A stretch of DNA of 64,000 nucleotides from the IMG/VR virus record IMGVR_UViG_3300045988_159115. One strand, given 5' to 3'. The stretch's first letter is position 1; each line of letters begins with the position of its first letter. Below, one piece after another: positions 11,173 to 49,194 of this stretch. This DNA comes from a virus. The position numbers and the translations under genes are program-made. Under the pieces are notes generated by a model that was not told the DNA's origin, did not search any database, and saw nothing but the letters and a program-made list of their open reading frames with translations.

Positions 11173-11182
11173 TATAATATAT
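11173..11182 (-). promoter_or_regulatory. ATATATTATA promoter-like motif (P2)
   Basis: Gene-orientation sequence is AATGATATATTATATT, 94 nt upstream of ATG 11079. Confidence 0.4.
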
Positions 11183-27875: not shown

Positions 27876-28491
27876 ATTTTACCTCAGTCAAGATGATGAT
27901 ACGGTAAGACGGGCTATTGAGACTGGGAATAATATGCGCGATGTCCATCCTCTTTATGCATTTACAAACAGCAAAGAGATGCGAGACGAATTCGTAGAAA
28001 TGCATAATATGAAATGCTTTTACGAAGTCGTCTCGAAAATGCCGAAATCGGAATGGGCGGAGTTTGCAAATAATAATCGTGGCAGGCTCTTGGAATATTT
28101 TGATTATAAGACACGATTCTATGATGATGCTGGTGTCATGCATCTTACGGATGAAGCTACAAATGGAATGAGCGGAGTTTCGATTCTTTCTACCAATAGC
28201 GAGCGTCTTCAGATTGAGTCGAATACGGATATCTTTAATGGTGTTCAGCTCATCAATGGAGAGCTTGCAGATATTTCGTGGCCAAATCCTTGGATTCTTA
28301 AACCGAAGTATCAAGAATCTCTCTTAGCTTTAGCATACGATAATTTTTGGAGACTTCTCAGAGATCCCGCTCAGCCTAAACTTGATGAGTATGCACCAGA
28401 ATGCTACGATCCTTATTCTGAATGGTGTGATGCAACTTTTGACGAAGCAGCAGCTTATGTTGCTGAGTACAAAGACTATCTGCGGAAGTAA
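27862..28491 (+). CDS. MKVY-family paralog 4 (209 aa), TTG start
   Basis: The track start GTG 27853 has no SD spacing. TTG 27862, 9 nt after AAAGGAAG, gives MKVYKFYL, matching the paralog N-termini. Other family motifs are LYAFTNSKEMRDEFVEMHNMKCF and YQESLLALAY. Confidence 0.65.
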   Translation: MKVYKFYLSQDDDTVRRAIETGNNMRDVHPLYAFTNSKEMRDEFVEMHNMKCFYEVVSKMPKSEWAEFANNNRGRLLEYFDYKTRFYDDAGVMHLTDEATNGMSGVSILSTNSERLQIESNTDIFNGVQLINGELADISWPNPWILKPKYQESLLALAYDNFWRLLRDPAQPKLDEYAPECYDPYSEWCDATFDEAAAYVAEYKDYLRK

Positions 28492-28528
28492 GCCTTGGAA
28501 CAGCTCTATAAGAAAGGAGCTGTGTTAC

Positions 28529-29194
28529 ATGACTGGTATTGATCGTATTCGTAAGAAGACGTTCCAAGCACCGGAAGATATGGAATATACCGTTACGTTT
28601 AATAACTCGAAAGATAAGACGAAGTTCATTAAGCGTTGCGAACGCCTTATCCGGTCTTCTATGGAATATCGAGATTACATTTCGTATTTGAAGGAGTACG
28701 TTGACATGAATCATTGTGCTTTCTTCAATAACGTTGAGAACGGGAATGGAAGTCGTGTTCGTATTGAGATTCATCATGAACCGTTTACACTGTACGATAT
28801 CACAAATGTCGTAGTGAACCGATTCCAGAAGGACGGCATTCCTCTGAATGATTACTTCATTGCCGATGAAGTGATGAAGCTTCATTATCAGAATGAGGTT
28901 GGCCTGATCCCTCTCTCAAAGTCGCTTCATCAGATGGTACACTTCTCGGATAACATCGTGATTCCGTTTAACCTCATCTACGGGAACTACCGTAAGTTTA
29001 TTGAGGATTACAGTGATTACTTTGATTTCGATGGTGATACCTCGATTCTCGATAAGTTTGAAGCAAAGGCTATTGATAGCCGGAAGTTCAGCGCAGAGAT
29101 GCTGAATAAGCTGACTCCGTCGTTTGTGTACATCGCAGTTGATGGCTTCTCGCTTCCTCAGAAAGTTCCTGTACAGGAATTGGAACACGCATAA
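28529..29194 (+). CDS. His-Me-finger/HNH-like protein (221 aa), paralog of 38025-38699
   Basis: The start is moved to ATG 28529, preceded by AGAAAGGAG. Motifs are FIKRCERLIRSS..Y..YLK...DMNHC, RIEIHHEPFTLYD and NEVGLIPLSKSLHQMVH, giving an HH...N...H...H spacing as in HNH folds. Confidence 0.45.
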   Translation: MTGIDRIRKKTFQAPEDMEYTVTFNNSKDKTKFIKRCERLIRSSMEYRDYISYLKEYVDMNHCAFFNNVENGNGSRVRIEIHHEPFTLYDITNVVVNRFQKDGIPLNDYFIADEVMKLHYQNEVGLIPLSKSLHQMVHFSDNIVIPFNLIYGNYRKFIEDYSDYFDFDGDTSILDKFEAKAIDSRKFSAEMLNKLTPSFVYIAVDGFSLPQKVPVQELEHA

Positions 29195-38834: not shown

Positions 38835-41800
38835 ATGGCTGATATTAATATGGTAAGTCAGCTTTCAAAAGACTTTATGACCATCGTACAAGATTCTGTC
38901 ATCAAGTATAAAGTCTTAGCTGACGAATCAGAGACTTTGGAAAGTATGCGGAACGGCGATCTCTACGTAAGAGCAATGCGCAAAGAAGATACTTTTGAAG
39001 GTTACGAAAATTTCACTGAAGAAGAAATTCTCGAAGTTTATGATGCTGCGGGAATTACGATCACACGAGGGGAACTGCTTGATTATGTCTATAATAATCG
39101 GGAGATTCCTGTCATTTATAAATACAAAAATGCTGATGGTACGATCGGTTTCCAGCATGATGTAAGAAAAGATCTCGTCGAGAATCGACGCAAGAAGATT
39201 ATCTCTACCTATGTGGAAGAGAATAACTACTATCGCATGCTGATCGGTCTTCCTGATCGAGATGAAGATCCGGATGAGTATTTTTACGTACCTGCTGACA
39301 TCGCAGAAGAATATAATCTTCCCAGCGATGTCGCTATTCATGAACTGGATATTGGTCAAGTATCAGTGCTTCAAGCAATTGGATACATTGATAAACTGAT
39401 TGCTGAGAATCCTACTAAGAAATATTTGAATTATCTTGGTAGTAAAGCAGTCGACCTTGTGACAGCAAGAAGTGCAAAGGCTTTTGATATTATCCGAGTT
39501 CCGAATATTTCTTCTGCTACGATGTGGAATAGTTTCTCTTTGATCTATTCTCAGTGCAGAGAATATTTTATGGTGACGATTTATGTCCCCGAGCATCGCC
39601 AGACGATTGGGTATTATGACAATTTCATTGCTCTGTGCATCATGGTGATGACTCTTCAGCAGTTCGTTGCTCGTATTTTGAAGTTCACGATTGAGCGTGA
39701 TTTCTTTGATGAGTATTGTGTGAGATGCCTGTTTAATTGCTATGGCGTTCCGTATGATAGTGCATTGGATAATGATACGAAGCTTCAAATCGTTCAGAAT
39801 CTGAATCTTCTCGTTCAGAATAAGGGTACAACGAAAGTTCTTGTAGACATCGCATCCATCCTTGGATTCGATCGTCTTAAGATCTATAAATACTGCCTGG
39901 TTAAAGATCGGCTGTTTGACGAAAATGGATTGCCTATTGTGGCAACGAAGAAAGATCCTGCTACAGGAAGAGAAGTTCCTGATTATGAGACGATGTATGA
40001 CGTTTATTTCAAGAAGATTGATGTGAGCGCTCATGACTACTATCATGCTCTTCAGAAAGAAGCTATTTCTGAATCGTATAGTAGCGTTACTTCTCCTGAT
40101 CCGTACTGGATTGATGACGATGAGTTAAAGAAATCATTGTATGAGATTGAGTATAACTATGCTGAGACAAAGTACATGGGTGTCTCAATTTCGTATCGAA
40201 TGACTCGACTTTTCTTTGATAACGTCTATGCTCTGAAGATGCTTCTGGATAATCGTTTTAAGGAATACACGATTTTCCTTGATCTTCCGAAAATTCTTAC
40301 CTATCAGAGCATTAGCATCTTCGATGCGATCGTTACTCTTTGTGCTCTTACATGTAAGATGAATAATCTTCGTGGTAACATCTTGTATACCCCTTCTAAG
40401 ATTCTTCATGTGATGGGATTCAACTTCCGTGAGAATTTTGATAAGATTCGTGAGAAGGTTATTCTTGGTTATGAGTATAAAGAGAATCCTAAGGAAGAAG
40501 AGAAGGAAGCGTATGAGAAGAAGCTGAAGTCCAGTCCGTATTATGACAGACTGAATGATGAGCTTGCTAAGTACTTTGAGCGTCCTGAGATGGATGGTCC
40601 GTATACGGCAGAGAATCTGAATATGATGTATTCGGATATTCTTACGATGTACGATTTCCTTCTGAATAAAATGGCTCATGCGGAAACGATTGAAGAATAT
40701 CGTCTGTATAAAGATTTCTATTATGCAGCATATTATGCTGAAGAAACGCAGGATATTTTTGCAATCGGTGACTCGAAGCCGTTTACCGATTGGGATACCA
40801 TCACTCAGAATGATGGATTCACAAAAGGATGGATTCTTGCTCACGTTGATACTACAAAAGATGCAGAGCATTGTCTTGTCCATGATAAGACTACGATTAC
40901 GACATGCAATTATCTGAGCAATCTGTTTAAAGATATCCAGGAAGGCTCTTATGTGGAGTTCCACCCGGCATCTAGCACATGGTCTCAGGTATATGAGTTC
41001 GATGCCAACGATACCTATATCAGAAGTTATAATCCTGCTTATGATTACGATAGCGGAAAGAGCTTTATTAAGTTCCTTCCAATTCGTGGTCATAAATATT
41101 ATATCAGTATGCGCCCATCTGATGCTGCCATTTCAACACGAGACAATCGAGTCATTTTCGATGATGAACTTGCTGGTATGGTAAATGGATGTCGTCTGGA
41201 GTTTGCTCCTAGATATGCATCAACGTTTATGGATTATCTGATGTACCGGAATCCGGCACTTTGGGCATTCGTCGAAAGTACTGACAAAGATCAGGTTCCT
41301 CAGTATGCAAATCATATCATCAATCGTCTTTTGAAGCTGATTCCTTCTTTGAGAACTCTGGGTTCGTCTATTGGATATTCCTCTACGATGGAGGATGTTC
41401 TTCTGAGATTCATCCGGTTCTTCAAATCCTATACAACAGACCTTCTGAATATGGAAGTTATCTATGTCTTGGATATGAAGCCAGAGAGTTTGCTCCGTCT
41501 AATGGATTATGGACGATATATCGTTACATTGTATCCGAAAGATGACCAGTTATTTGGCTATACAGACATGCTGGAAGCTTCTATTACGGAGCATATGGAT
41601 ACGAAGTTGACATTCAGAGATAATGTGAACGTGTCTTCCATTTTGTATCTTTTCTCTGATCTTCGGTTCATTGATGACATCCATCATATCCAAGTAGATA
41701 TCCGAAAGAAAGATGATCTCAAGATCAATGATAGGAATCAGTTTGAACTGATCACAGATTATATCTGGCTTCAGTCGATTCTTCATATTCATGATTGGTT

Positions 41801-42524
41801 CCGGTATGAAGTTATCTATAAGATGTATGAGAACCGAATTCCTTTCCGAGATGAAATTCTCAGGACTTTTATAGATCTCGTAGCAAACGACACTCAATTT
41901 GGCTTCTATGATATGCTCTTCGATTATTCCAAGTTTATTCATCCAGATACTTACATGAAGTTTAAGGATGGATTGGATTATCAGACGTATTACCCGATGC
42001 AGACTGGATATACGCTTAGAGATAGATCTGATGTCGTGTCAAAGACTGATGAACTCAACGATAAGACCTTCCGTCTCTACGTAGAGAAATTCTTTAAGAA
42101 AGAGATTGAAGTCTTTGATAAAGACGGATTCAGGTTCACTGATGACACAGATAAATTTGCTATTCTTTTACAGGATAAAACTTATCTGCGCTATCGTGAT
42201 GCAATTCGCATTGAAGTTCTTATGAGACTCTTTGATAGAAAGACCTTCACTGATCAGATGAATCATATGCAAGTTGTAATTGATCGACTGATGAGTAAGT
42301 ATCATTTCACGGATGCTCATAAAAGCACTCATGGTGATTATTTGACTCCGGATGGATACCATTTCTCTGATGAAGTTTCCTATATATCGAAAGAGTATCT
42401 CGCAAAGCACGGTGCAGCATCTCATATGGGATTCTATGACTTTATCATGGCTCCCGAGATAAATGAATCGGTAAATACAAAACTTGGATTTAAAGACGAA
42501 TGCAGAATCTTCTATGAAGAATAA
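38835..42524 (+). CDS. large hypothetical protein (1229 aa), possibly virion/baseplate-associated
   Basis: SD is GGAGGTGAG. It is the longest complete ORF in the window. No enzymatic motif recognised, and a structural role is inferred from size only. Confidence 0.7.
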   Translation: MADINMVSQLSKDFMTIVQDSVIKYKVLADESETLESMRNGDLYVRAMRKEDTFEGYENFTEEEILEVYDAAGITITRGELLDYVYNNREIPVIYKYKNADGTIGFQHDVRKDLVENRRKKIISTYVEENNYYRMLIGLPDRDEDPDEYFYVPADIAEEYNLPSDVAIHELDIGQVSVLQAIGYIDKLIAENPTKKYLNYLGSKAVDLVTARSAKAFDIIRVPNISSATMWNSFSLIYSQCREYFMVTIYVPEHRQTIGYYDNFIALCIMVMTLQQFVARILKFTIERDFFDEYCVRCLFNCYGVPYDSALDNDTKLQIVQNLNLLVQNKGTTKVLVDIASILGFDRLKIYKYCLVKDRLFDENGLPIVATKKDPATGREVPDYETMYDVYFKKIDVSAHDYYHALQKEAISESYSSVTSPDPYWIDDDELKKSLYEIEYNYAETKYMGVSISYRMTRLFFDNVYALKMLLDNRFKEYTIFLDLPKILTYQSISIFDAIVTLCALTCKMNNLRGNILYTPSKILHVMGFNFRENFDKIREKVILGYEYKENPKEEEKEAYEKKLKSSPYYDRLNDELAKYFERPEMDGPYTAENLNMMYSDILTMYDFLLNKMAHAETIEEYRLYKDFYYAAYYAEETQDIFAIGDSKPFTDWDTITQNDGFTKGWILAHVDTTKDAEHCLVHDKTTITTCNYLSNLFKDIQEGSYVEFHPASSTWSQVYEFDANDTYIRSYNPAYDYDSGKSFIKFLPIRGHKYYISMRPSDAAISTRDNRVIFDDELAGMVNGCRLEFAPRYASTFMDYLMYRNPALWAFVESTDKDQVPQYANHIINRLLKLIPSLRTLGSSIGYSSTMEDVLLRFIRFFKSYTTDLLNMEVIYVLDMKPESLLRLMDYGRYIVTLYPKDDQLFGYTDMLEASITEHMDTKLTFRDNVNVSSILYLFSDLRFIDDIHHIQVDIRKKDDLKINDRNQFELITDYIWLQSILHIHDWFRYEVIYKMYENRIPFRDEILRTFIDLVANDTQFGFYDMLFDYSKFIHPDTYMKFKDGLDYQTYYPMQTGYTLRDRSDVVSKTDELNDKTFRLYVEKFFKKEIEVFDKDGFRFTDDTDKFAILLQDKTYLRYRDAIRIEVLMRLFDRKTFTDQMNHMQVVIDRLMSKYHFTDAHKSTHGDYLTPDGYHFSDEVSYISKEYLAKHGAASHMGFYDFIMAPEINESVNTKLGFKDECRIFYEE

Positions 42525-42589: not shown

Positions 42590-43513
42590 ATGATGAAATC
42601 TATGATTAAGAAACTTAACGATAGATTTTCCATGAATGACAAGGTCGACATTGGCAATGACCATCACCATCGGAATACCCTGTGGGCTCGTACCCAGATC
42701 ATTGGTGGCTACGGCCTCCATAAGAATCCTGAGACTGGTCTTTCTGAACTTGATGAGGTCGTGTTCGAGACTGAGAACATGGTTCCTATTGGCGGCGTCC
42801 AGTTTGCTATGGAGCAGATCTTTGGTGTGAAGGGCCCTCTTGAGGTTCCTTCTCTGAATAAGGATCTTGGCATTGCAACAGGCGCTACTGTGAAGCCGAC
42901 TGCCCCCAACCCTCATGCATATGGTACGAAGGTTTGCCTGTTCGGTATTGGCGTCAGTGGTTCTGCTGAGAACAACCTGACTGCTAAGGAAGTTAAGTAC
43001 CGTGACAGTGCTGTTGACGGTATGGTTCCATTCCGTTATACCAATGAGACTCTGTCAACTGATGATCAGAAGCGTTACTTTGGTAAGGTGAAGAAGACCG
43101 ATACAAACACCACCGCTTACTATCTGAAGCGTTTCGATGGCGAACCTGTCATCAAGCACTTCTATGACGATTCCACTGAGGATGGCGTGGATGGTTCTGA
43201 GGTCAAGAGCGATATCTTTACCAAGGATTATGGTAAGGGCGTTCAGACTCTGACTGAGATGAACCTGATCATCTCCAAGAAGGACATCAAGGAGTGGTTC
43301 ACTGCTCAGGGTAACGTTGAGGAGAGCCGTGTGAACTCCATTGCTCTGTATTCTGCCGTCTATGACGCGAATGCAAAGCTGAACCCTGCAGATACGAATG
43401 AGACTATGGGTGACTATACTGACATCCATCTGTTCTCTAAGCTGAACATCCCCACTGAGCCTATGAGCCTCACAAAGGATATGCACATCATTTATCGCGT
43501 TTACGGTTCTTAA
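42590..43513 (+). CDS. hypothetical, probably highly expressed protein (about 303-307 aa; start 42590, 42593 or 42602)
   Basis: Codon usage is C/G-ending and a strong terminator follows. No motif recognised. Confidence 0.7.
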   Translation: MMKSMIKKLNDRFSMNDKVDIGNDHHHRNTLWARTQIIGGYGLHKNPETGLSELDEVVFETENMVPIGGVQFAMEQIFGVKGPLEVPSLNKDLGIATGATVKPTAPNPHAYGTKVCLFGIGVSGSAENNLTAKEVKYRDSAVDGMVPFRYTNETLSTDDQKRYFGKVKKTDTNTTAYYLKRFDGEPVIKHFYDDSTEDGVDGSEVKSDIFTKDYGKGVQTLTEMNLIISKKDIKEWFTAQGNVEESRVNSIALYSAVYDANAKLNPADTNETMGDYTDIHLFSKLNIPTEPMSLTKDMHIIYRVYGS

Positions 43514-43551
43514 AATCAAACAGATATTTGATGCCTGTAAGCTGAAACTAG

Positions 43552-43597
43552 CCGCATGAATAAAATGACATTGCGTCAATTATTCATGCGGTTTTTT
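43552..43597 (+). terminator. intrinsic terminator
   Basis: Stem ccgcatgaataa/ttattcatgcgg followed by TTTTTT. Confidence 0.85.
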
Positions 43598-43601
43598 GTT
43601 T

Positions 43602-43611
43602 ATATATTATA
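43602..43611 (+). promoter_or_regulatory. ATATATTATA promoter-like motif (P10)
   Basis: The sequence is GTTTATATATTATACTTAAG, 68 nt upstream of ATG 43679. Confidence 0.45.
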
Positions 43612-43678
43612 CTTAAGTACGAAAGCTGAAACCATTAGTTATTCGTGCAAAAAAATATTTTTTTAGGAGGCATGATTT

Positions 43679-44824
43679 ATGCTAAGTATTTCTGTAGTGG
43701 GTATCGGTAACTGCGGTTCGCAAATCGCTGCGTTGGCTATGAAGAAGCTAAACGTACCTGTGATTGCGATCAACAGCAGTGAAAGAGATATCCAGACCCT
43801 GCCGGAAGACGTTCCGGTTTACTTGATGGGTGACGCCAAGGGCGCTGGCAAGCAGCGTATCATGGCAAAGCAGATGCTCAAGAAGTCCGTTATGGACATC
43901 CTTGAGAATCCGAAACTGAAGGACGTCTTCGCAAGTGACATCCTGTTTGTGGTGTCTTCTACTGGTGGCGGTACCGGTTCTGGTACTGCGATCCTGATGA
44001 CCAATATCATTCGTGAGGTCTACACGAAGGGTACTGTCGTCACGGTTGGCGTGCTTCCTACGCTCAAGGAAGCTCTGTCGACTCAGTTGAACAGCGTTGA
44101 GTATCTGAAGGAGCTGTATGGCACCATGACGGATACTACATATATGCTGTATGATAATGATCGTTGTTCGAAGAGTGCGATCGCCATGATGGATTCTGTG
44201 AACGAGCAGGTCGTCAACGATATGGATGTCATCCGCGGAACCTATCAGATTCCGACTCGTTACGCATCCATCGACGAGAGAGACATGCTCAACATCATCG
44301 GTACTCCTGGCCGTCTTGTTGTTGCTGGCGTTCGGGATATCGCAAAGCGTCGTGACGCAGATAACATCGACATCGAGGATGCTCTGATTGATGCTCTGCG
44401 TACCGCTCCGATTGCAGATCTCGAGAAGGATGGCGTGATTGCACGTACTGGTGTGATCAGTGCGCTGTCTTCTGATCTGAACGATCGGTTTGATACCCAT
44501 ATCCCGAAGGTTCTGAATGTCGTTGGTACTCCTGTCGAGGAGTTTGAGCATGTGGCGGTCAATACTGATCGTCATCTTCCGTCCAACGTCTTCATCGTGT
44601 GCTCTGGCATGAGCCAAGCAAACGATCGTCTTCGTAAGATCAATGATCGAATCGAAGAGATCAATTCTTTGCAGGAGAAGGCAAAGGCTGACGATTCTAT
44701 CATCTCCGAGATTGATGTTTCGAAGCTGAGCCAGAAGGTGAGCCACACCCGTACTCCTGCAAAGGAAAAGGAAGCAGGTACAGATTTCGACCTGAAGAGC
44801 ATCTTCTCGAAGTTCGGCATCTAA
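43679..44824 (+). CDS. tubulin/FtsZ-superfamily GTPase (phage tubulin, PhuZ/TubZ-like), 381 aa
   Basis: There is an N-terminal GIGNCGSQIA (compare tubulin GQCGNQIG), an exact tubulin signature GGGTGSG (nt 43964-43984), a T7-loop-like MLYDNDRC (compare tubulin VDNEA), and an extended C-terminal tail ending TDFDLKSIFSKFGI. Confidence 0.85.
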   Translation: MLSISVVGIGNCGSQIAALAMKKLNVPVIAINSSERDIQTLPEDVPVYLMGDAKGAGKQRIMAKQMLKKSVMDILENPKLKDVFASDILFVVSSTGGGTGSGTAILMTNIIREVYTKGTVVTVGVLPTLKEALSTQLNSVEYLKELYGTMTDTTYMLYDNDRCSKSAIAMMDSVNEQVVNDMDVIRGTYQIPTRYASIDERDMLNIIGTPGRLVVAGVRDIAKRRDADNIDIEDALIDALRTAPIADLEKDGVIARTGVISALSSDLNDRFDTHIPKVLNVVGTPVEEFEHVAVNTDRHLPSNVFIVCSGMSQANDRLRKINDRIEEINSLQEKAKADDSIISEIDVSKLSQKVSHTRTPAKEKEAGTDFDLKSIFSKFGI

Positions 44825-44837
44825 GTAAGGTTTCATA

Positions 44838-44898
44838 AGAGGGGAATAGTATTTTACCGAGGTGGTTACACTAAGGTAATTTTGGCTATCCCCTCTTT
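44838..44898 (+). terminator. long-loop hairpin after the tubulin gene (attenuator or weak terminator)
   Basis: Stem agaggggaatag/ctatcccctct with a loop of about 36 nt, followed by TTT. Confidence 0.35.
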
Positions 44899-44931
44899 AT
44901 GGGATAAATAAATTCAAGGAGGACTCATTAT

Positions 44932-45918
44932 ATGAGTAAGGACAACAACAAAAAACGGGAATTTAAGATTCCTAAGGAAGTCAAGAATTTCCTCATGCCG
45001 TTCAAGAAGTGGCGTAAGGACAATGACTTTTACGAGAGCAAGAAGGATGCTCGTAAGGCCTATTACACCGAGAAGCTCGAGTGGATGGGCGAGAGTGTGA
45101 TTCCTCTGCTCGTCAGTTATGGCTATCGTCAGGAAGTGATTGAGATCAAGAACGACCTCTACGAAGGGTTGTCTGATCCCGAGTTCGTGAAGGCCTGCAC
45201 AAAGGCTGTCAAGAAGGGCGATGGTTTTGAGAACCAGTCCCTGTATGCAGTCCTGGTCCAGGACATGGCTGAGGCGCTGGCAAAGCAGGCTCGCGTTGAG
45301 TCTGCTAAGACTGGTGAGACCATCGTTACGGATATCGACGATATGGTTGAGCTGTCCAAGCTGGTTCTGGCAAAGAAGATCAAGAAGGCAAAGAAGGCCG
45401 GGATTGATGAAGCCACTGCATTCAGTGTGCTGAGCATCCTGCCGGATACTTCCATTCTGGATATCCGCAACGACAACCGCTGTAATAAGAAGTTCTACTT
45501 CTACAGAAAGCTTATCAATTGCCTGTATACTCTGGCAAAGGATAAGCCTCTGTGTGCACCGGTTGGTGAGATCATCGAATTCGTCTTCCGTAAGGGCGAC
45601 GACTTCATCCCCAGTTTCATCGTGTGTGCGATGCTGGAGCGTAAGGAGCGTTACAACAGCCTCAACAAGACTCAGCAGGAGGTCTATGACCAGCTGACTA
45701 CTTGGGCTTTTGGTAAGCTCGAGAGTTACGATAAGGAAACCATCACTGCCGCCCTGCGTCTGTATTACAACTGGCGCAAGGACGACGCAGCAAACAACCG
45801 TGATTCTCAGCGCCGATACTATGTGAGCAGCCTGCCGGAGAATGAATATCCGAAGACTGTCGCATGCATGAACAAGATCATCGCAAGCGGCGATGAGCAC
45901 ACCAAGGACTTTTTCTAA
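44932..45918 (+). CDS. hypothetical protein (328 aa), tubulin-operon partner 1
   Basis: SD is AAGGAGG. The N-terminus is Lys-rich (MSKDNNKKREFKIPKEVKNF...). Codon usage is C/G-ending, as in the tubulin gene. Confidence 0.75.
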   Translation: MSKDNNKKREFKIPKEVKNFLMPFKKWRKDNDFYESKKDARKAYYTEKLEWMGESVIPLLVSYGYRQEVIEIKNDLYEGLSDPEFVKACTKAVKKGDGFENQSLYAVLVQDMAEALAKQARVESAKTGETIVTDIDDMVELSKLVLAKKIKKAKKAGIDEATAFSVLSILPDTSILDIRNDNRCNKKFYFYRKLINCLYTLAKDKPLCAPVGEIIEFVFRKGDDFIPSFIVCAMLERKERYNSLNKTQQEVYDQLTTWAFGKLESYDKETITAALRLYYNWRKDDAANNRDSQRRYYVSSLPENEYPKTVACMNKIIASGDEHTKDFF

Positions 45919-45936
45919 TAAAGGAGAGCAAGAATA

Positions 45937-46521
45937 ATGGGCAAGCATAATAATCGTTATGATAAGCGTAAGGGTGTTTCCGAGAAGGTGAGCACCAAGC
46001 TGTCCAAGCGTCTGGACGAGAAGAGCATGAGCGAGACGTTGAGCGTCAGCTGCATGAAGAATCCCGTTGAGTATGCTTCTAAGCATGCCAACAAGAAGCT
46101 TCGTCTGAAGGGTATCAGCAAGGCTGAGAAGAAGCTGCTGACCTGTGGCTGTGAGCACGTCATCATCAACAAGAAGGGTCGGCGCAAGGCTGCTCTGCGC
46201 CCTGCTGAGAAGGGCATGATGCAGTGCCGTCTGTGCGGCAAGATCATTTCTCCCACCATTCCCACCGAGGAGGATCTGGATAAGATCTGGGAGGCTTCCG
46301 ATGCAGTCGACAATCAGGTTCGTCTGATGGTCGGTATGCTGGATCTCGGCGCAAACGTCGATCGTGCAACCTATGCGTTCGCATGGCGTCAGAAGATGTG
46401 GCGTAAGTTCGAGGCCAAGATCATCAAGCTGGGTGCCAAGAATCAGGTGATCCAGGACAAGAAGCACGGCAAGGGCAACAACGACAACGATGGCTCCGGT
46501 GTTGCTGGCGAGTGGTATTGA
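45937..46521 (+). CDS. hypothetical zinc-ribbon protein (194 aa), tubulin-operon partner 2
   Basis: SD is AAAGGAG. The N-terminus is basic, there is a TCGCEH...(about 30 aa)...QCRLCGK motif, and the tail is Gly/Asn-rich. Confidence 0.75.
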   Translation: MGKHNNRYDKRKGVSEKVSTKLSKRLDEKSMSETLSVSCMKNPVEYASKHANKKLRLKGISKAEKKLLTCGCEHVIINKKGRRKAALRPAEKGMMQCRLCGKIISPTIPTEEDLDKIWEASDAVDNQVRLMVGMLDLGANVDRATYAFAWRQKMWRKFEAKIIKLGAKNQVIQDKKHGKGNNDNDGSGVAGEWY

Positions 46522-46615
46522 TCTACAGAGAAAGATAAGCTTAGCTACCTTATCTCAAAACGTGCTACAATCGCGTCAAAATTGAAGCACTGTGTTTAAC
46601 TGTAGTTAAATGAGA

Positions 46616-46667
46616 AGAATCCAATGTGATTTGTGTAATAGCAAATTCACATTGGATTCTTTTTTTC
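46616..46667 (+). terminator. intrinsic terminator closing the tubulin operon
   Basis: Stem agaatccaatgtgatttg/caaattcacattggattct followed by TTTTTTT. Confidence 0.85.
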
Positions 46668-46746
46668 GTGCTAGGAAGTCTATGATCCGAAAGGGATTTA
46701 ATCTCATAAATTGGGAAACTTTCCATTAATCCGTATAGGACTACGC

Positions 46747-46773
46747 ATGAAAAACGAAAGGACGATATGAATG
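46747..46773 (+). promoter_or_regulatory. conserved leader / 7-codon uORF MKNERTI, with TGA abutting the topoisomerase B start
   Basis: The sequence ATGAAAAACGAAAGGACGATATGAATGG is 27/28 identical to 49373-49400. The uORF stop at 46768-46770 is immediately followed by ATG 46771. Confidence 0.55.
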
Positions 46774-49194
46774 GCCCAATTTAAAGACGATAAGATGGAA
46801 TACATCGAATCGGATATTGAAAAGATCCAAATGAAAACCGGCATGTATATCTCTTATGTCGGTCGTAAAGGTGCACTGCATCTGGCAAAAGAAGTAATTC
46901 AAAATGCTATTGATGAATGTGCAAACCCCAAAAGTCCTGCTAAGAATATTCAGGTAACTCTTGACGTTTTGGATGGTTCTCTGATTGTCGAAGACGATGG
47001 TCGTGGCATTCCGGAGACTCAGGAGATCCCGATGGATATTCTGTGTACAAAACTGAATTCCGGTAGTAAGTTTACCCGTGAACAGGGTGGCGCTTCTTCC
47101 GGTGAAAACGGTGTCGGTCTGACTGCTACAAACGCACTGTCTGCCATGTTCCGTTGGGAATCTTACCGCGATGGAAATTGCCACCACATCGAGTTTGAGA
47201 ATGGTGTGAAGATTGCAGACGAGCATAAGAAGTCTAGCAAGAAGCATGGTTGTATTCTCAAATTCATTCCCTCTACGAAGTACCTCGGTAAATCAGCAGT
47301 CATCAATAAAGATGACCTGAAAGAATGGCTGGATGGTATTTCGTATTTCATCCCTTCTGATTGCAAGATCGTTTATACGGTCGAGAAGGGTATGGATAAA
47401 GTTATCTCCAGCACCAAGTATAAGTCTGGCAATATGAGTGATCTTCTGAAATCTCATCTGACAGATTCTGTCTTGGTAAAGCCGAAAGATTTCCACGGTG
47501 AAACCAAACTCGATGAGGATTACCGTGGAGAAAAGACGATTAAGAGAAGCCTGTCTCTTCAGTTTGCATTTGCATACACGACTTCTCTTGAGCCTTGGGT
47601 AGATTCTTTCTGTAACTACGTGAATACCACTTCTGGTGGCGTTCATCTGAATGCAGTCAGAGAAGCTATCTGGCGATTCTTTATGAAGAAGACAAATGAA
47701 GCTCTGAGTGAGAGAGAGAAGAATAAGTATTCTGTGTTAAAGGTTGATATTGAATCCGGTATGAATCTGGTTGTCAATATCTTCACCGATGCTCAGATGC
47801 AATTCGTTGGTCAGACCAAGAACGAGATCTCCAACGACATGCTCTTCGCTCCGATTAAGCAGCTCGCTTCCGATGCGATGGATGGATACTATTCCAAGCC
47901 GGAGAATAAGGACGAGCTGAATGCGATCGTGAAGGTTATTAAGACGAACTGCAAAGCTCGTGTTGATGCTTCCAAGATCCGTGAGCAGACGATCAAGGAG
48001 ACCGTCAATAAGTTTGACAAGCACAAGATTCCGAACTTCACTCCTTGCAATAACGATGGCAAGGCTTACAAAGAGCTTCACATCTGTGAGGGACGCTCGG
48101 CAGCTGGCTCTCTGGTTAACGGTCGTGATCCTGACACTCAGGCATTCTTCAGTTTCCGTGGCGTCACTGCGAACGGTTTTAAGCGTGACGCATCTACCAT
48201 CCTTGCCAACAAGGAATGGTATACCTACGTCAAGCTTCTGAAGACAAACTTTGGCCCGAAGTTTAACCTTGCCAATTGCTATTATGACAAGATTATCATC
48301 GAGACAGACTCCGATGTCGACGGCTATAATATCTCTTCTGGTATCGGTGCGTTCCATGCACTGTATATGCCGGAACTGGTTAAAGCCGGTAAGCTGTACA
48401 AAGCAATCGCTCCTCTGTACCATATCGACGATAAGAAGACTCCGTTTGTCCGTTCTAAGAACGAGTACATCGAAGCATATCAGGATAAGGTGCTGAAGAA
48501 CTATAAGGTCGCTCTTGATTCTTATGGTAAGGACTATCTGAAGAGTTCTGTCTTTAAGAAGTTCATCTATGATACGGAATTCTATCCTGATGAGCTGACT
48601 CGTGTCTCCAACCACTTCGGTGTCAATAAGTTCCTCATTGAGCGTATCGCCGCATACTTCGTTATCGGTGGTTATATGACGTCGGACATTCCCACTCTCT
48701 TTGGTAATCGGAAGTTCCTTCTGAAGTTCACCGAGATGCTCCAGTTGAAGTTCCCTGAGCTGAAAGTAACCGATAAGGGTTCTATCACTGGCATCATTGA
48801 TGGTAAGTTCCAGTCGATCAAGATTACCGATCGCTTCATCAAGAAGATCGAGGACCTCGCTCCTATCTACTCTGAGTATGGTTATATGATGAGAGTTTGT
48901 GAGAAGGATGGTCCTGAGATTCCGATGAGCATTGGTGAGTTCCTCGATTCTGCCAATAAGTACAAGGCGAAGATTCTGTCTCGCTTTAAAGGACTTGGCG
49001 AAGCAAACGGTAAGGAACTGTGGCAGACTACCCTTGACCCGAACAACCGTATTCTGATTCAGTTGACTATGGATGATGTTGAGAAGGATCTGAAGATCTT
49101 TGCAAAGCTCCATGGTACAACGGAAGAAGATCTGAGAGCACGTAAGGAAATGATGGCTGCTTACCGCATCAAGAGAGATGATCTGGATAACTAA
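46771..49194 (+). CDS. type IIA DNA topoisomerase, ATPase/Toprim subunit (GyrB/ParE/T4 gp39-like), 807 aa
   Basis: Motifs present are EVIQNAIDE, EDDGRGIP, GENGVGLTATNALS, Toprim ICEGRSAAGS and ETDSDVDGYNI, and RFKGLGEANGKELWQTTLDP. Confidence 0.92.
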   Translation: MAQFKDDKMEYIESDIEKIQMKTGMYISYVGRKGALHLAKEVIQNAIDECANPKSPAKNIQVTLDVLDGSLIVEDDGRGIPETQEIPMDILCTKLNSGSKFTREQGGASSGENGVGLTATNALSAMFRWESYRDGNCHHIEFENGVKIADEHKKSSKKHGCILKFIPSTKYLGKSAVINKDDLKEWLDGISYFIPSDCKIVYTVEKGMDKVISSTKYKSGNMSDLLKSHLTDSVLVKPKDFHGETKLDEDYRGEKTIKRSLSLQFAFAYTTSLEPWVDSFCNYVNTTSGGVHLNAVREAIWRFFMKKTNEALSEREKNKYSVLKVDIESGMNLVVNIFTDAQMQFVGQTKNEISNDMLFAPIKQLASDAMDGYYSKPENKDELNAIVKVIKTNCKARVDASKIREQTIKETVNKFDKHKIPNFTPCNNDGKAYKELHICEGRSAAGSLVNGRDPDTQAFFSFRGVTANGFKRDASTILANKEWYTYVKLLKTNFGPKFNLANCYYDKIIIETDSDVDGYNISSGIGAFHALYMPELVKAGKLYKAIAPLYHIDDKKTPFVRSKNEYIEAYQDKVLKNYKVALDSYGKDYLKSSVFKKFIYDTEFYPDELTRVSNHFGVNKFLIERIAAYFVIGGYMTSDIPTLFGNRKFLLKFTEMLQLKFPELKVTDKGSITGIIDGKFQSIKITDRFIKKIEDLAPIYSEYGYMMRVCEKDGPEIPMSIGEFLDSANKYKAKILSRFKGLGEANGKELWQTTLDPNNRILIQLTMDDVEKDLKIFAKLHGTTEEDLRARKEMMAAYRIKRDDLDN

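Follow-up and report, generated by a model that had tools for sequence, protein, structure and literature searches.

Two phage tubulin systems are understood: partition by TubZ, TubR and a centromere, and the PhuZ spindle around a chimallin nucleus. The first is represented by TubZRC(Y) of the Clostridium botulinum phage c-st (TubZ is CST189, TubR is CST190, and CST188 occupies the TubY position), a plasmid prophage in which the gene order is tubR-tubZ. The tip of the c-st TubZ tail contacts the upper subunit of the filament and binds the TubR-centromere complex and TubY (PMC5322520), and TubY combines a DNA-binding domain and a coiled coil with a cluster of lysines through which it binds DNA and membranes (PMC7762940). 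PhuZ, found in phiKZ, 201phi2-1 and other Chimalliviridae, has no known dedicated co-encoded partner. Here, we analyze a tubulin unit in a 64,000-nucleotide stretch of IMG/VR virus record IMGVR_UViG_3300045988_159115. This stretch, referred to below as the window, is part of a genome of ~255 kb, and our statements on absence apply to the window. The unit encodes, on the + strand, a tubulin (43679-44824, 381 amino acids) and two further proteins, P2 (44932-45918, 328 amino acids) and P3 (45937-46521, 194 amino acids). All three open reading frames (ORFs) have the coordinates and strand given in the original prediction, which read the locus as a phage tubulin operon with two partner proteins of no known family. 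The literature that we searched contains no description of this tubulin clade, of P2 or of P3, and recognizes only c-st-type TubZ and PhuZ as subgroups of phage tubulins.

Our analysis confirms the observation behind the original prediction and partly supports its interpretation. We propose, with roughly even confidence, that the unit encodes an early-expressed TubZ-like filament with P2 as an obligate co-factor and P3 as an accessory basic protein. The gene content, the catalytic residues, the family placement, the genomic linkage, and the promoter and terminator signals that underlie this proposal are established directly.

Catalytic residues and placement of the tubulin

The first gene of the unit was originally identified as a tubulin from its sequence motifs and long C-terminal tail, and its product matches Pfam Tubulin (PF00091) with E = 5.8e-15 and a score of 56.5 bits against a cut-off of 33. 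The motif GIGNCGSQIA is present at residues 8-17 (T1 loop, 8-15) and GGGTGSG at residues 96-102 (T4 loop). In an alignment of 33 family members with 45-74% identity, the T1 residues G8, G10, N11, G13 and Q15 are invariant, as are the T4 segment S93-S94-x-G96-G-G-T-G-S-G102 and the T7 segment S197-I-D199-E200-x-D202, which reads S-I-D-E-R-D in the window tubulin. The DN[DE] element that had been taken for a T7-like loop lies at residues 159-161 and is a conserved Y-D-N at the position of strand S6 and loop T6. The true T7 segment aligns with the T7 loop of CetZ and with D197 and E200 of c-st TubZ. More specifically, T100 of c-st TubZ aligns with T99 of the window tubulin and E200 aligns with D202, so the two proteins have the T4 threonine and the T7 acidic residues in common; T100A and E200A are published catalytic mutants of c-st TubZ (PMC5322520). 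The residues for GTPase activity and polymerization are thus present on alignment, and the tubulin is predicted from its sequence to be catalytically intact.

The placement of the tubulin within its superfamily rests on profile and hidden Markov model (HMM) scores rather than on a formal phylogeny that includes FtsZ, CetZ and BtubAB. When the family profile is compared to PDB sequences, c-st TubZ is the closest solved tubulin (70 and 63 bits), followed by CetZ as the second-best solved group (55-61 bits), archaeal FtsZ (44 bits), bacterial FtsZ (~35 bits), pXO1 RepX/TubZ (33 bits) and BtubA (29 bits). PhuZ and pBtoxis TubZ are outside the 60 best PDB matches. The 63-bit match spans profile positions 25-375, which align with residues 29-359 of c-st TubZ chain 3v3t and include the C-terminal (activation) domain past H7. 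Among phage sequences, the family HMM gives 123 bits for gp138 of Bacillus phage G, 66 bits for c-st TubZ, and 5.7 bits for phiKZ PhuZ (gp39). These scores indicate that the tubulin is TubZ-like, akin to the phage G and c-st proteins, and not a PhuZ; membership in the PhuZ clade is ruled out by the 5.7 bits on gp39 compared to 66-123 bits for the others. The earlier assignment to a 'PhuZ/TubZ superfamily' was too wide, and the tubulin may belong to the TubZ lineage, although CetZ scores nearly as high as c-st TubZ.

Neither of the two closest relatives is a near match. Identity to c-st TubZ is only ~27% over the GTPase domain. The best-scoring isolate sequence, gp138, is an uncharacterized FtsZ/tubulin-like GTPase that is 26% identical over 85% of the protein. 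Phage G is likewise a giant phage, and its host is Gram-positive. However, the neighbors of gp138 (gp136, gp137 and gp139-142) are unlike P2 and P3, with no similarity detected when the P2 and P3 HMMs were compared to phage G gp136-142, and the terminal peptide of gp138 differs. The gp138 protein was undetected in the phage G proteome (PMC12484599). In the protein database there are 695 relatives of the window tubulin, and every one of the best 120 is a full-length protein from a contig of at most 295 kb; the sources include bovine metagenomes and one NCBI assembly.

The best PHROG family of the tubulin is PHROG 4733 (E = 5.9e-13), which is named 'tubulin PhuZ'. This name would favor a PhuZ-like spindle in a nucleus-forming phage, in which the tubulin centers or rotates a chimallin compartment encoded elsewhere while P2 and P3 are unrelated early neighbors. 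The match reflects the common GTPase domain, and the negligible similarity to phiKZ PhuZ, together with the position of PhuZ outside the 60 best PDB matches, argues against such a spindle.

The tubulin ends in a conserved peptide, D-L-K-S-I-F-S-K-F-G-I, which is preceded by a conserved helix at residues ~313-333 (N315, D316, R324, E327) and a variable acidic linker at ~335-368. In the HMM alignment, the end of c-st TubZ (...EIDINDFFSKYM, ...IDINDFFSKYM) pairs with the end of the window tubulin (...DFDLKSIFSKFGI), so that both proteins have a flexible tail with a homologous terminal peptide. By analogy with c-st TubZ, it is plausible that the tail tip of the window tubulin has the same dual role in contacting the filament and binding partners.

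A conserved C-terminal peptide after a flexible linker is also the layout of the FtsZ tail. The FtsZ C-terminal tail binds many division proteins. This layout, the sequence similarity of the tubulin to CetZ and FtsZ, and an early expression that would fit host take-over could suggest that the tubulin and its partners disturb or co-opt the host FtsZ ring or cell shape instead of transporting cargo. However, the FtsZ scores of 35-44 bits are no closer than the TubZ scores of 63-70 bits, the terminal peptide is that of c-st TubZ rather than the FtsZ consensus, and neither P2 nor P3 resembles a known division protein or inhibitor. As for CetZ, one family member is annotated as CetZ by the JGI, but the CetZ proteins are archaeal cell-shape tubulins of cellular origin with a different C-terminal region and no P2/P3-like partners, and the likeness is confined to the GTPase domain. 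We consider host manipulation very unlikely.

Linkage of P2 and P3 to the tubulin

The original prediction proposed that the two downstream genes encode partners of the tubulin that would be syntenic with it in relatives. When viral loci were retrieved with P2 as the seed, 13 of 13 had a tubulin directly upstream and a P3-family gene downstream. With the tubulin as the seed, 77 loci were retrieved, 51 of which have a tubulin identity of at least 37% and room downstream. P2 starts ~0-325 nt past the end of the tubulin gene in every one of these 51 loci, and P3 is found in 47 of them, 1.1-2.4 kb after the tubulin. Extra ORFs are inserted between P2 and P3 and between P3 and the topoisomerase II genes, never between the tubulin and P2. 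One such ORF, an orphan of 312-337 amino acids that we call X, lies between P2 and P3 in many relatives (for example, L007:10300-11238 and L008:10343-11356) and is absent from the window; it has no Pfam match and may be a fourth, optional component of the module.

Much of this order could be inherited without function, with P2 and P3 belonging to a DNA-metabolism block or being independent early genes. The whole neighborhood is collinear across the main clade, and P3 is found only where topoisomerase II is nearby. More distant loci are informative here. L025, which we located via a four-sequence alignment of a distant P2 subgroup, is a 227-kb contig with 29% GC that encodes a tubulin 37% identical to that of the window, followed by P2 (HMM, 2e-30). 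Its neighborhood is without the virion gene, topoisomerase II and P3, and has a polymerase beta-like gene downstream. In L065, L066 and L069, P2 is present and neither P3 nor topoisomerase II is nearby; P3 is thus absent from these three loci and from L025. In L097, L098 and L101, tubulins that are 28-30% identical are followed by a distant P2 homolog of ~390 amino acids (HMM, 4.5e-10 to 6e-6). The tubulin-P2 pair is therefore kept in at least three rearranged contexts (L025; L065/L066/L069; L097/L098/L101). For P2, the survival of the pair away from the virion gene and topoisomerase II, and the insertion of ORFs elsewhere in the module but never between tubulin and P2, argue against gene order without function, as does the inclusion of all three window genes in one promoter-terminator unit apart from topoisomerase II. 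We consider that explanation improbable.

This linkage, seen in the seeded loci and in the rearranged contexts, strongly supports P2 as a companion specific to this tubulin. P3 is often present as an accessory, varies together with the topoisomerase block and is a weaker partner candidate than P2. The slot downstream of the tubulin is the place where this tubulin lineage keeps a co-factor. The predicted synteny thus holds for P2 in all 51 loci and in the three distant contexts, and for P3 only in part, since P3 follows the topoisomerase genes. A role for P2 and P3 as tubulin adaptors or modulators is putative and is suggested by genomic association.

A sister clade of tubulins, which are 30-36% identical to the window tubulin and have the same C-terminal peptide, carries an AAA ATPase in the downstream slot instead of P2. 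Representatives with a PF00004 match and the Walker A sequence GKPGTGKS are found at L072:6179-7543, L081:6219-7514, L083:6237-7559 and L086:6129-7412. Larger versions of 583-800 amino acids, at L070:6252-8003, L090:6219-8621 and L093:6205-8400, have large insertions between their conserved halves, and these insertions may be inteins. The P2-linked tubulins, the AAA-linked tubulins and c-st TubZ all carry the terminal peptide [DN]-[IL]-x-x-[ILMF]-F-x-K-[FY]. Since the peptide is thus ancestral, we rejected it as a P2-specific docking site.

P2 is 12.5% lysine, with an isoelectric point (pI) of 8.7. An exhaustive HMMER search of 1.84 billion representative proteins returned 190 P2 clusters, all of them stand-alone proteins of ~280-370 amino acids; a word-indexed search gave only 6 matches. 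In keeping with the original prediction that the partners belong to no known family, P2 has no Pfam, PHROG, NCBIfam or PADLOC match beyond noise, and a 39-member P2 profile matches no PDB sequence at E <= 10. When 39 P2 and 13 P3 sequences were scanned one by one against Pfam, no family matched more than 2 members, and searches with P2 and P3 by tblastn against 50,697 phage records gave no match at E <= 1. The AlphaFold2 model of P2 is all-helical, with a mean predicted local distance difference test score (pLDDT) of 61.5 and a predicted template-modeling score (pTM) of 0.54; pLDDT reaches 77-90 in the C-terminal half. A Foldseek search of the PDB with this model gave nothing better than E = 0.43 and a template-modeling (TM) score of 0.2, and a search of BFVD gave only three uncharacterized gut 'Myoviridae sp.' proteins of similar length, which probably belong to the same family.

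P3 is more basic (14.9% lysine, pI 9.8) and diverges fast, with 38% identity where the tubulin is 72% identical; the word-indexed search gave 2 matches only. The motif C72-x-H74...C97-x-x-C100(G) is invariant in an alignment of 13-16 orthologs and may form a putative zinc knuckle. In the original prediction this motif was written as CxC...CxxC. The CxxC half is borne out, but the first half is C72-x-H74, and C70, on which the CxC reading depended, is not conserved. The orthologs also have a conserved glutamine in the helical region, a KKxKKKNK-type tail and a terminal G-x-W. P2, in turn, ends in ...K-[YF]-[LF], so that both proteins have short conserved aromatic tips; that such tips are typical of peptide-in-groove contacts is only a suggestion. 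When searched against PDB and Pfam, the P3 profile matches nothing significant, the best being the Rad50 zinc hook (E = 0.14) along with sub-threshold zinc-finger matches, and P3 has no PHROG, NCBIfam or PADLOC match beyond noise. The AlphaFold2 run for P3, used for secondary structure only, suggests two long helices and, around the Cys/His motif, short strands. With its metal-type knuckle, long helices and clustered lysines, P3 would parallel TubY without sequence homology: each system encodes, downstream of its tubulin, a basic protein that has a helical region and a lysine cluster, and the likeness is one of architecture only. Neither P2 nor P3 has a MerR or helix-turn-helix Pfam match.

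Transcription unit, promoter class and phage lineage

The gene that precedes the unit (42590-43513) encodes a 307-amino-acid virion-type protein with a weak match to a PHROG of virion structural proteins. It is ended by a terminator on the + strand at 43550-43599, which forms the 5' edge of the unit and consists of a hairpin and then UUUUUU (-22.9 kcal/mol, z = -6.5, 0 of 200 shuffles equally stable); within it is a 12-nt perfect inverted repeat at 43552-43563 / 43580-43591. Three bases past this terminator, at 43602-43611 (+), is the promoter element ATATATTATA, with a predicted transcription start at G43617. The sequence also contains a Shine-Dalgarno AGGAGG at 43665-43670 (+), ~55 nt past ATATATTATA and 8 nt 5' of the tubulin ATG. 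At the 3' end, an intrinsic terminator at 46612-46668 (+) closes the unit with a hairpin and then UUUUUUU (-29.4 kcal/mol, z = -7.7), formed from an 18-nt inverted repeat that is 94% complementary, in agreement with the strong closing terminator expected from the original prediction. Both topoisomerase II subunits lie immediately 3' of the unit, as had been noted; the first matches Pfam DNA_gyraseB/Toprim and the second DNA_topoisoIV (1.5e-91). The stretch from the 3' terminator to the topoisomerase genes has no copy of ATATATTATA. This makes the unit self-contained, with the tubulin, P2 and P3 in one promoter-terminator unit that is separate from topoisomerase II in the window.

Whether the three genes form a simple operon is less clear. 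We found no terminator or promoter motif between P2 and P3 in the window, and the sequence predicts that these two genes are co-transcribed. In the 107-nt spacer between the tubulin and P2, however, an extended intercistronic hairpin is present at 44830-44905 (+) (-35.8 kcal/mol, z = -4.5, 0 of 200 shuffles equally stable). The shared unit predicted originally is thus supported, but the 'operon' may be attenuated past the tubulin. L003, L006, L007, L008 and L035 also have strong hairpins just after the tubulin stop codon (z = -2.9 to -5.5), although the sequences of these hairpins are unrelated. Some of the post-tubulin hairpins in relatives are followed by U-runs, and that of L007 is followed by a TATATTAT-like element; L025 has no hairpin after the tubulin gene. 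The hairpin could be an attenuator, a leaky terminator or an mRNA-stabilizing element. Its conserved position fits partial termination or stabilization of a 3' end, and either would make the tubulin message more abundant than the partner message.

A common C/G-ending codon usage had also been proposed for the three genes. GC content at third codon positions is 0.58 for the tubulin, 0.67 for P2 and 0.71 for P3, compared to 0.22-0.58 for 29 other ORFs of the window. P2 and P3 are therefore extreme, as proposed, whereas the value for the tubulin is equaled by several other genes. Two long antisense ORFs, 43748-44836 (-, 362 amino acids) and 44914-46467 (-, 517 amino acids), overlap the tubulin and P2/P3, respectively, and most likely encode nothing, being shadows that the high third-position GC of the sense genes casts on the opposite strand. 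With regard to the neighboring topoisomerase II, the B subunit is a single 807-amino-acid ORF in the window (46771-49194), and relatives have split versions of 526 + 276 amino acids (L006:12281-15133) and 119 + 690 amino acids (L008:12125-15026), with the halves several hundred bases apart, which suggests inserted mobile elements or introns.

That the unit has its own promoter motif, as originally predicted, is supported by the distribution of ATATATTATA. It occurs 10 times in the window compared to 0.28 copies expected, and 0 of 100 shuffles reached 10. The copies lie at 11173(-), 11511(-), 12953(-), 22778(-), 26665(+), 30723(+), 43602(+), 56044(+), 58429(+) and 62643(+), and all 10 lie 25-100 nt 5' of a Shine-Dalgarno sequence and start codon in the orientation of the gene. 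A scan for sigma-70 promoters found fewer sites than in shuffles and was uninformative. The early promoters of phage AR9 have the consensus AAATATATATTAT-(6N)-G+1 and are read by an injected virion multisubunit RNA polymerase (PMC5312081). The ATATATTAT core of the window motif is identical to the corresponding part of AAATATATATTAT, and all 10 copies have a purine 6 nt downstream of ATATATTAT, at the seventh position past the core; in 6 of them, including the copy with G43617, it is G. In contrast, the upstream AAAT of the AR9 consensus is missing from the window motif. The order of terminator, motif, Shine-Dalgarno sequence and ATG recurs 5' of the tubulin in L003, L006, L032, L035, L043, L066 and L025, and the distant L025 holds an exact copy of ATATATTATA upstream of its tubulin. 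L025 also encodes, close to the tubulin-P2 pair (L025:9836-12082), a 748-amino-acid protein with Rpb2 domain 6 (Rpb2_6, 2.4e-23), which confirms that this relative is a multisubunit-RNA-polymerase phage. From the identity of the motif and the lineage, the tubulin unit is probably an early transcription unit that starts at G43617, and the copies of ATATATTATA would define the set of early transcription units in this uncultured phage.

The lineage is indicated by two marker proteins. A nucleotide search of GenBank phages with the unit gave no match, and IMG/VR contains contigs of 250-260 kb with tubulins that are 97-98% and 72% identical. The markers are a virion protein (38835-42524) and the ORF at 28382-29194 (+). 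Isolate homologs of these markers are found only in the Bacillus phages AR9, PBS1 and BpSp, in Yersinia phage phiR1-37, and in further jumbo phages, namely those of Staphylococcus (PALS_2, S6 and others), Listeria phage LPJP1 and the Fusobacterium jumbo phages. The second marker encodes 270 amino acids, contains the sequence DFDGD and has a match to phrog_12252 (1.2e-49). Hypothetical proteins with 35-42% identity to it occur only in AR9/PBS1, phiR1-37, BpSp, the Staphylococcus jumbo phages and LPJP1, and it could be a piece of a divergent RNA polymerase beta-prime subunit. These markers place the phage, by sequence, in the AR9/PBS1/phiR1-37 lineage. No tubulin is present among the isolates of this lineage. 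The window has no tRNA genes. Its Shine-Dalgarno sequences are strong and of the AGGAGG type, which suggests that the host is Gram-positive-like or Fusobacterium-like.

The promoter class and the lineage bear on a PhuZ-like spindle in opposite ways. The tubulin and PhuZ are both jumbo-phage tubulins of the phiKZ-related supergroup with an AT-rich class of early promoter, and a role in positioning phage DNA during lytic growth is plausible for both. The promoter type is that of the early genes of phiKZ-related phages (PMC5312081), and PhuZ is early in phiKZ (PMC13282480). Metagenomic phages of 200-324 kb with chimallin and PhuZ are common in animal and oral samples (PMC12625630), and only a quarter of the present genome is visible. 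However, the nearest isolates belong to a group whose representatives PBS1, PALS_2 and phiR1-37 encode a multisubunit RNA polymerase and no chimallin (Prichard et al., PMC10299810), and a tblastn search of the window with phiKZ chimallin (gp54) gave no match (best E = 4.6), consistent with the original observation that no chimallin is seen. In addition, the invariant adjacency of the tubulin and P2 across differing neighborhoods is hard to explain if P2 is unrelated to the tubulin. We consider a PhuZ-like spindle quite unlikely.

The comparison with c-st raises a different alternative, type III (TubZ) partition. The unit would then serve a carrier state, plasmid-like or pseudolysogenic, with P3 or P2 replacing TubR as the adaptor that binds the centromere and with the centromere outside the region examined. 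A carrier state or pseudolysogeny is a known trait of PBS1-type phages, and the closest characterized relative, c-st TubZ, partitions a plasmid prophage. P3 is basic and has a zinc-type motif and a TubY-like lysine cluster. Moreover, centromere-binding proteins are notoriously non-homologous between systems (PMC7762940), and phage tubulins have been linked to segregation in pseudolysogeny (Iyer et al., PMC7824862). Against partition, the unit has no adjacent gene for a TubR-like small winged helix-turn-helix (wHTH) protein, and no iteron family or centromere repeats were found in the intergenic DNA of 43400-46900, where a repeat search gave only scattered 2-3-copy chance matches within coding sequence; both absences had been part of the original prediction. 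The P2 and P3 HMMs give ~1 bit or less on c-st TubR (CST190) and less than 0 bits on CST188, the gene in the TubY position. The window unit thus differs from c-st in being without a TubR wHTH gene, iterons or a MerR-type TubY, in having in P2 a protein without a counterpart in c-st, and in having the tubulin gene first. It also differs in its setting, a lytic-type jumbo phage, where the unit is embedded between virion and replication genes and its promoter is not an autoregulated operator but one of about 10 promoters of a general phage class in the window. Finally, a P2 profile scan of 185,579 bacterial and archaeal genomes found no relative, and therefore no resident prophage or plasmid copies were detected. 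Taken together, partition is unlikely.

Proposed function and significance

We favor an early-expressed TubZ-like filament with dedicated co-factors. The tubulin would bind GTP and polymerize head to tail, with the T7 loop (D199/D202) activating GTP hydrolysis. Its acidic linker and short hydrophobic-basic tip would act as in c-st TubZ, where the tip contacts neighbors and docks partners. P2, which occurs almost solely beside tubulins of this clade, would most likely be an obligate filament co-factor, either a cargo adaptor or a nucleator/modulator of assembly, and P3 an accessory component that binds nucleic acid or membranes. Owing to the hairpin that follows its gene, the message of the tubulin is probably more abundant than those of the partners. 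The system as a whole would position or move phage DNA or other large cargo without a chimallin nucleus or a TubR-centromere pair. The early timing, the physical interaction, the cargo, the mechanism and the role of the hairpin are all predictions of this model.

Several points weigh against the model. No multisubunit RNA polymerase gene was identified in the window (no Rpb1/Rpb2 domain in the ORFs scanned), and since 64 kb of ~255 kb was seen, the rest of the genome could hold a chimallin, a TubR-like gene, a centromere, an integrase or a partition locus. The synteny of the main clade is largely that of a collinear backbone of virion genes, module and topoisomerase II, which proves little alone, and P3 tracks the topoisomerase block, not the tubulin-P2 pair. 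The terminal peptide of the tubulin extends to the AAA-ATPase sister clade and c-st TubZ. Finally, the structural model of P2 is of moderate confidence only, and that of P3, which had only near-identical sequences as input, is unusable (pLDDT 40).

We give appreciable but less than even credence to a broader proposal: that the P2 family and a TubZ-like tubulin, with P3 in most lineages, constitute a third phage cytoskeletal machine, independent of chimallin and TubR, that organizes phage DNA or the replication factory early in infection, and that the AAA ATPase of the sister clade is an exchangeable alternative co-factor for the same filament. If this is true, such a machine operates in a widespread group of jumbo phages, all uncultured, from the gut, rumen and mouth. 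The module is common in metagenomes, with hundreds of tubulin clusters on contigs of 200-295 kb in addition to the P2 clusters, and the cultured members of its jumbo-phage lineage lack both a tubulin and a nucleus. Beside the two solutions that are understood it would be a third, with a dedicated partner of unknown fold, and the three-gene system would bear on how a bacterial-type tubulin filament couples to cargo without a centromere adaptor. The occupation of the downstream slot by P2 or by an AAA ATPase would be a case of partner swapping on a conserved filament, and the promoter motif would extend the AR9-type early promoter to uncultured relatives.

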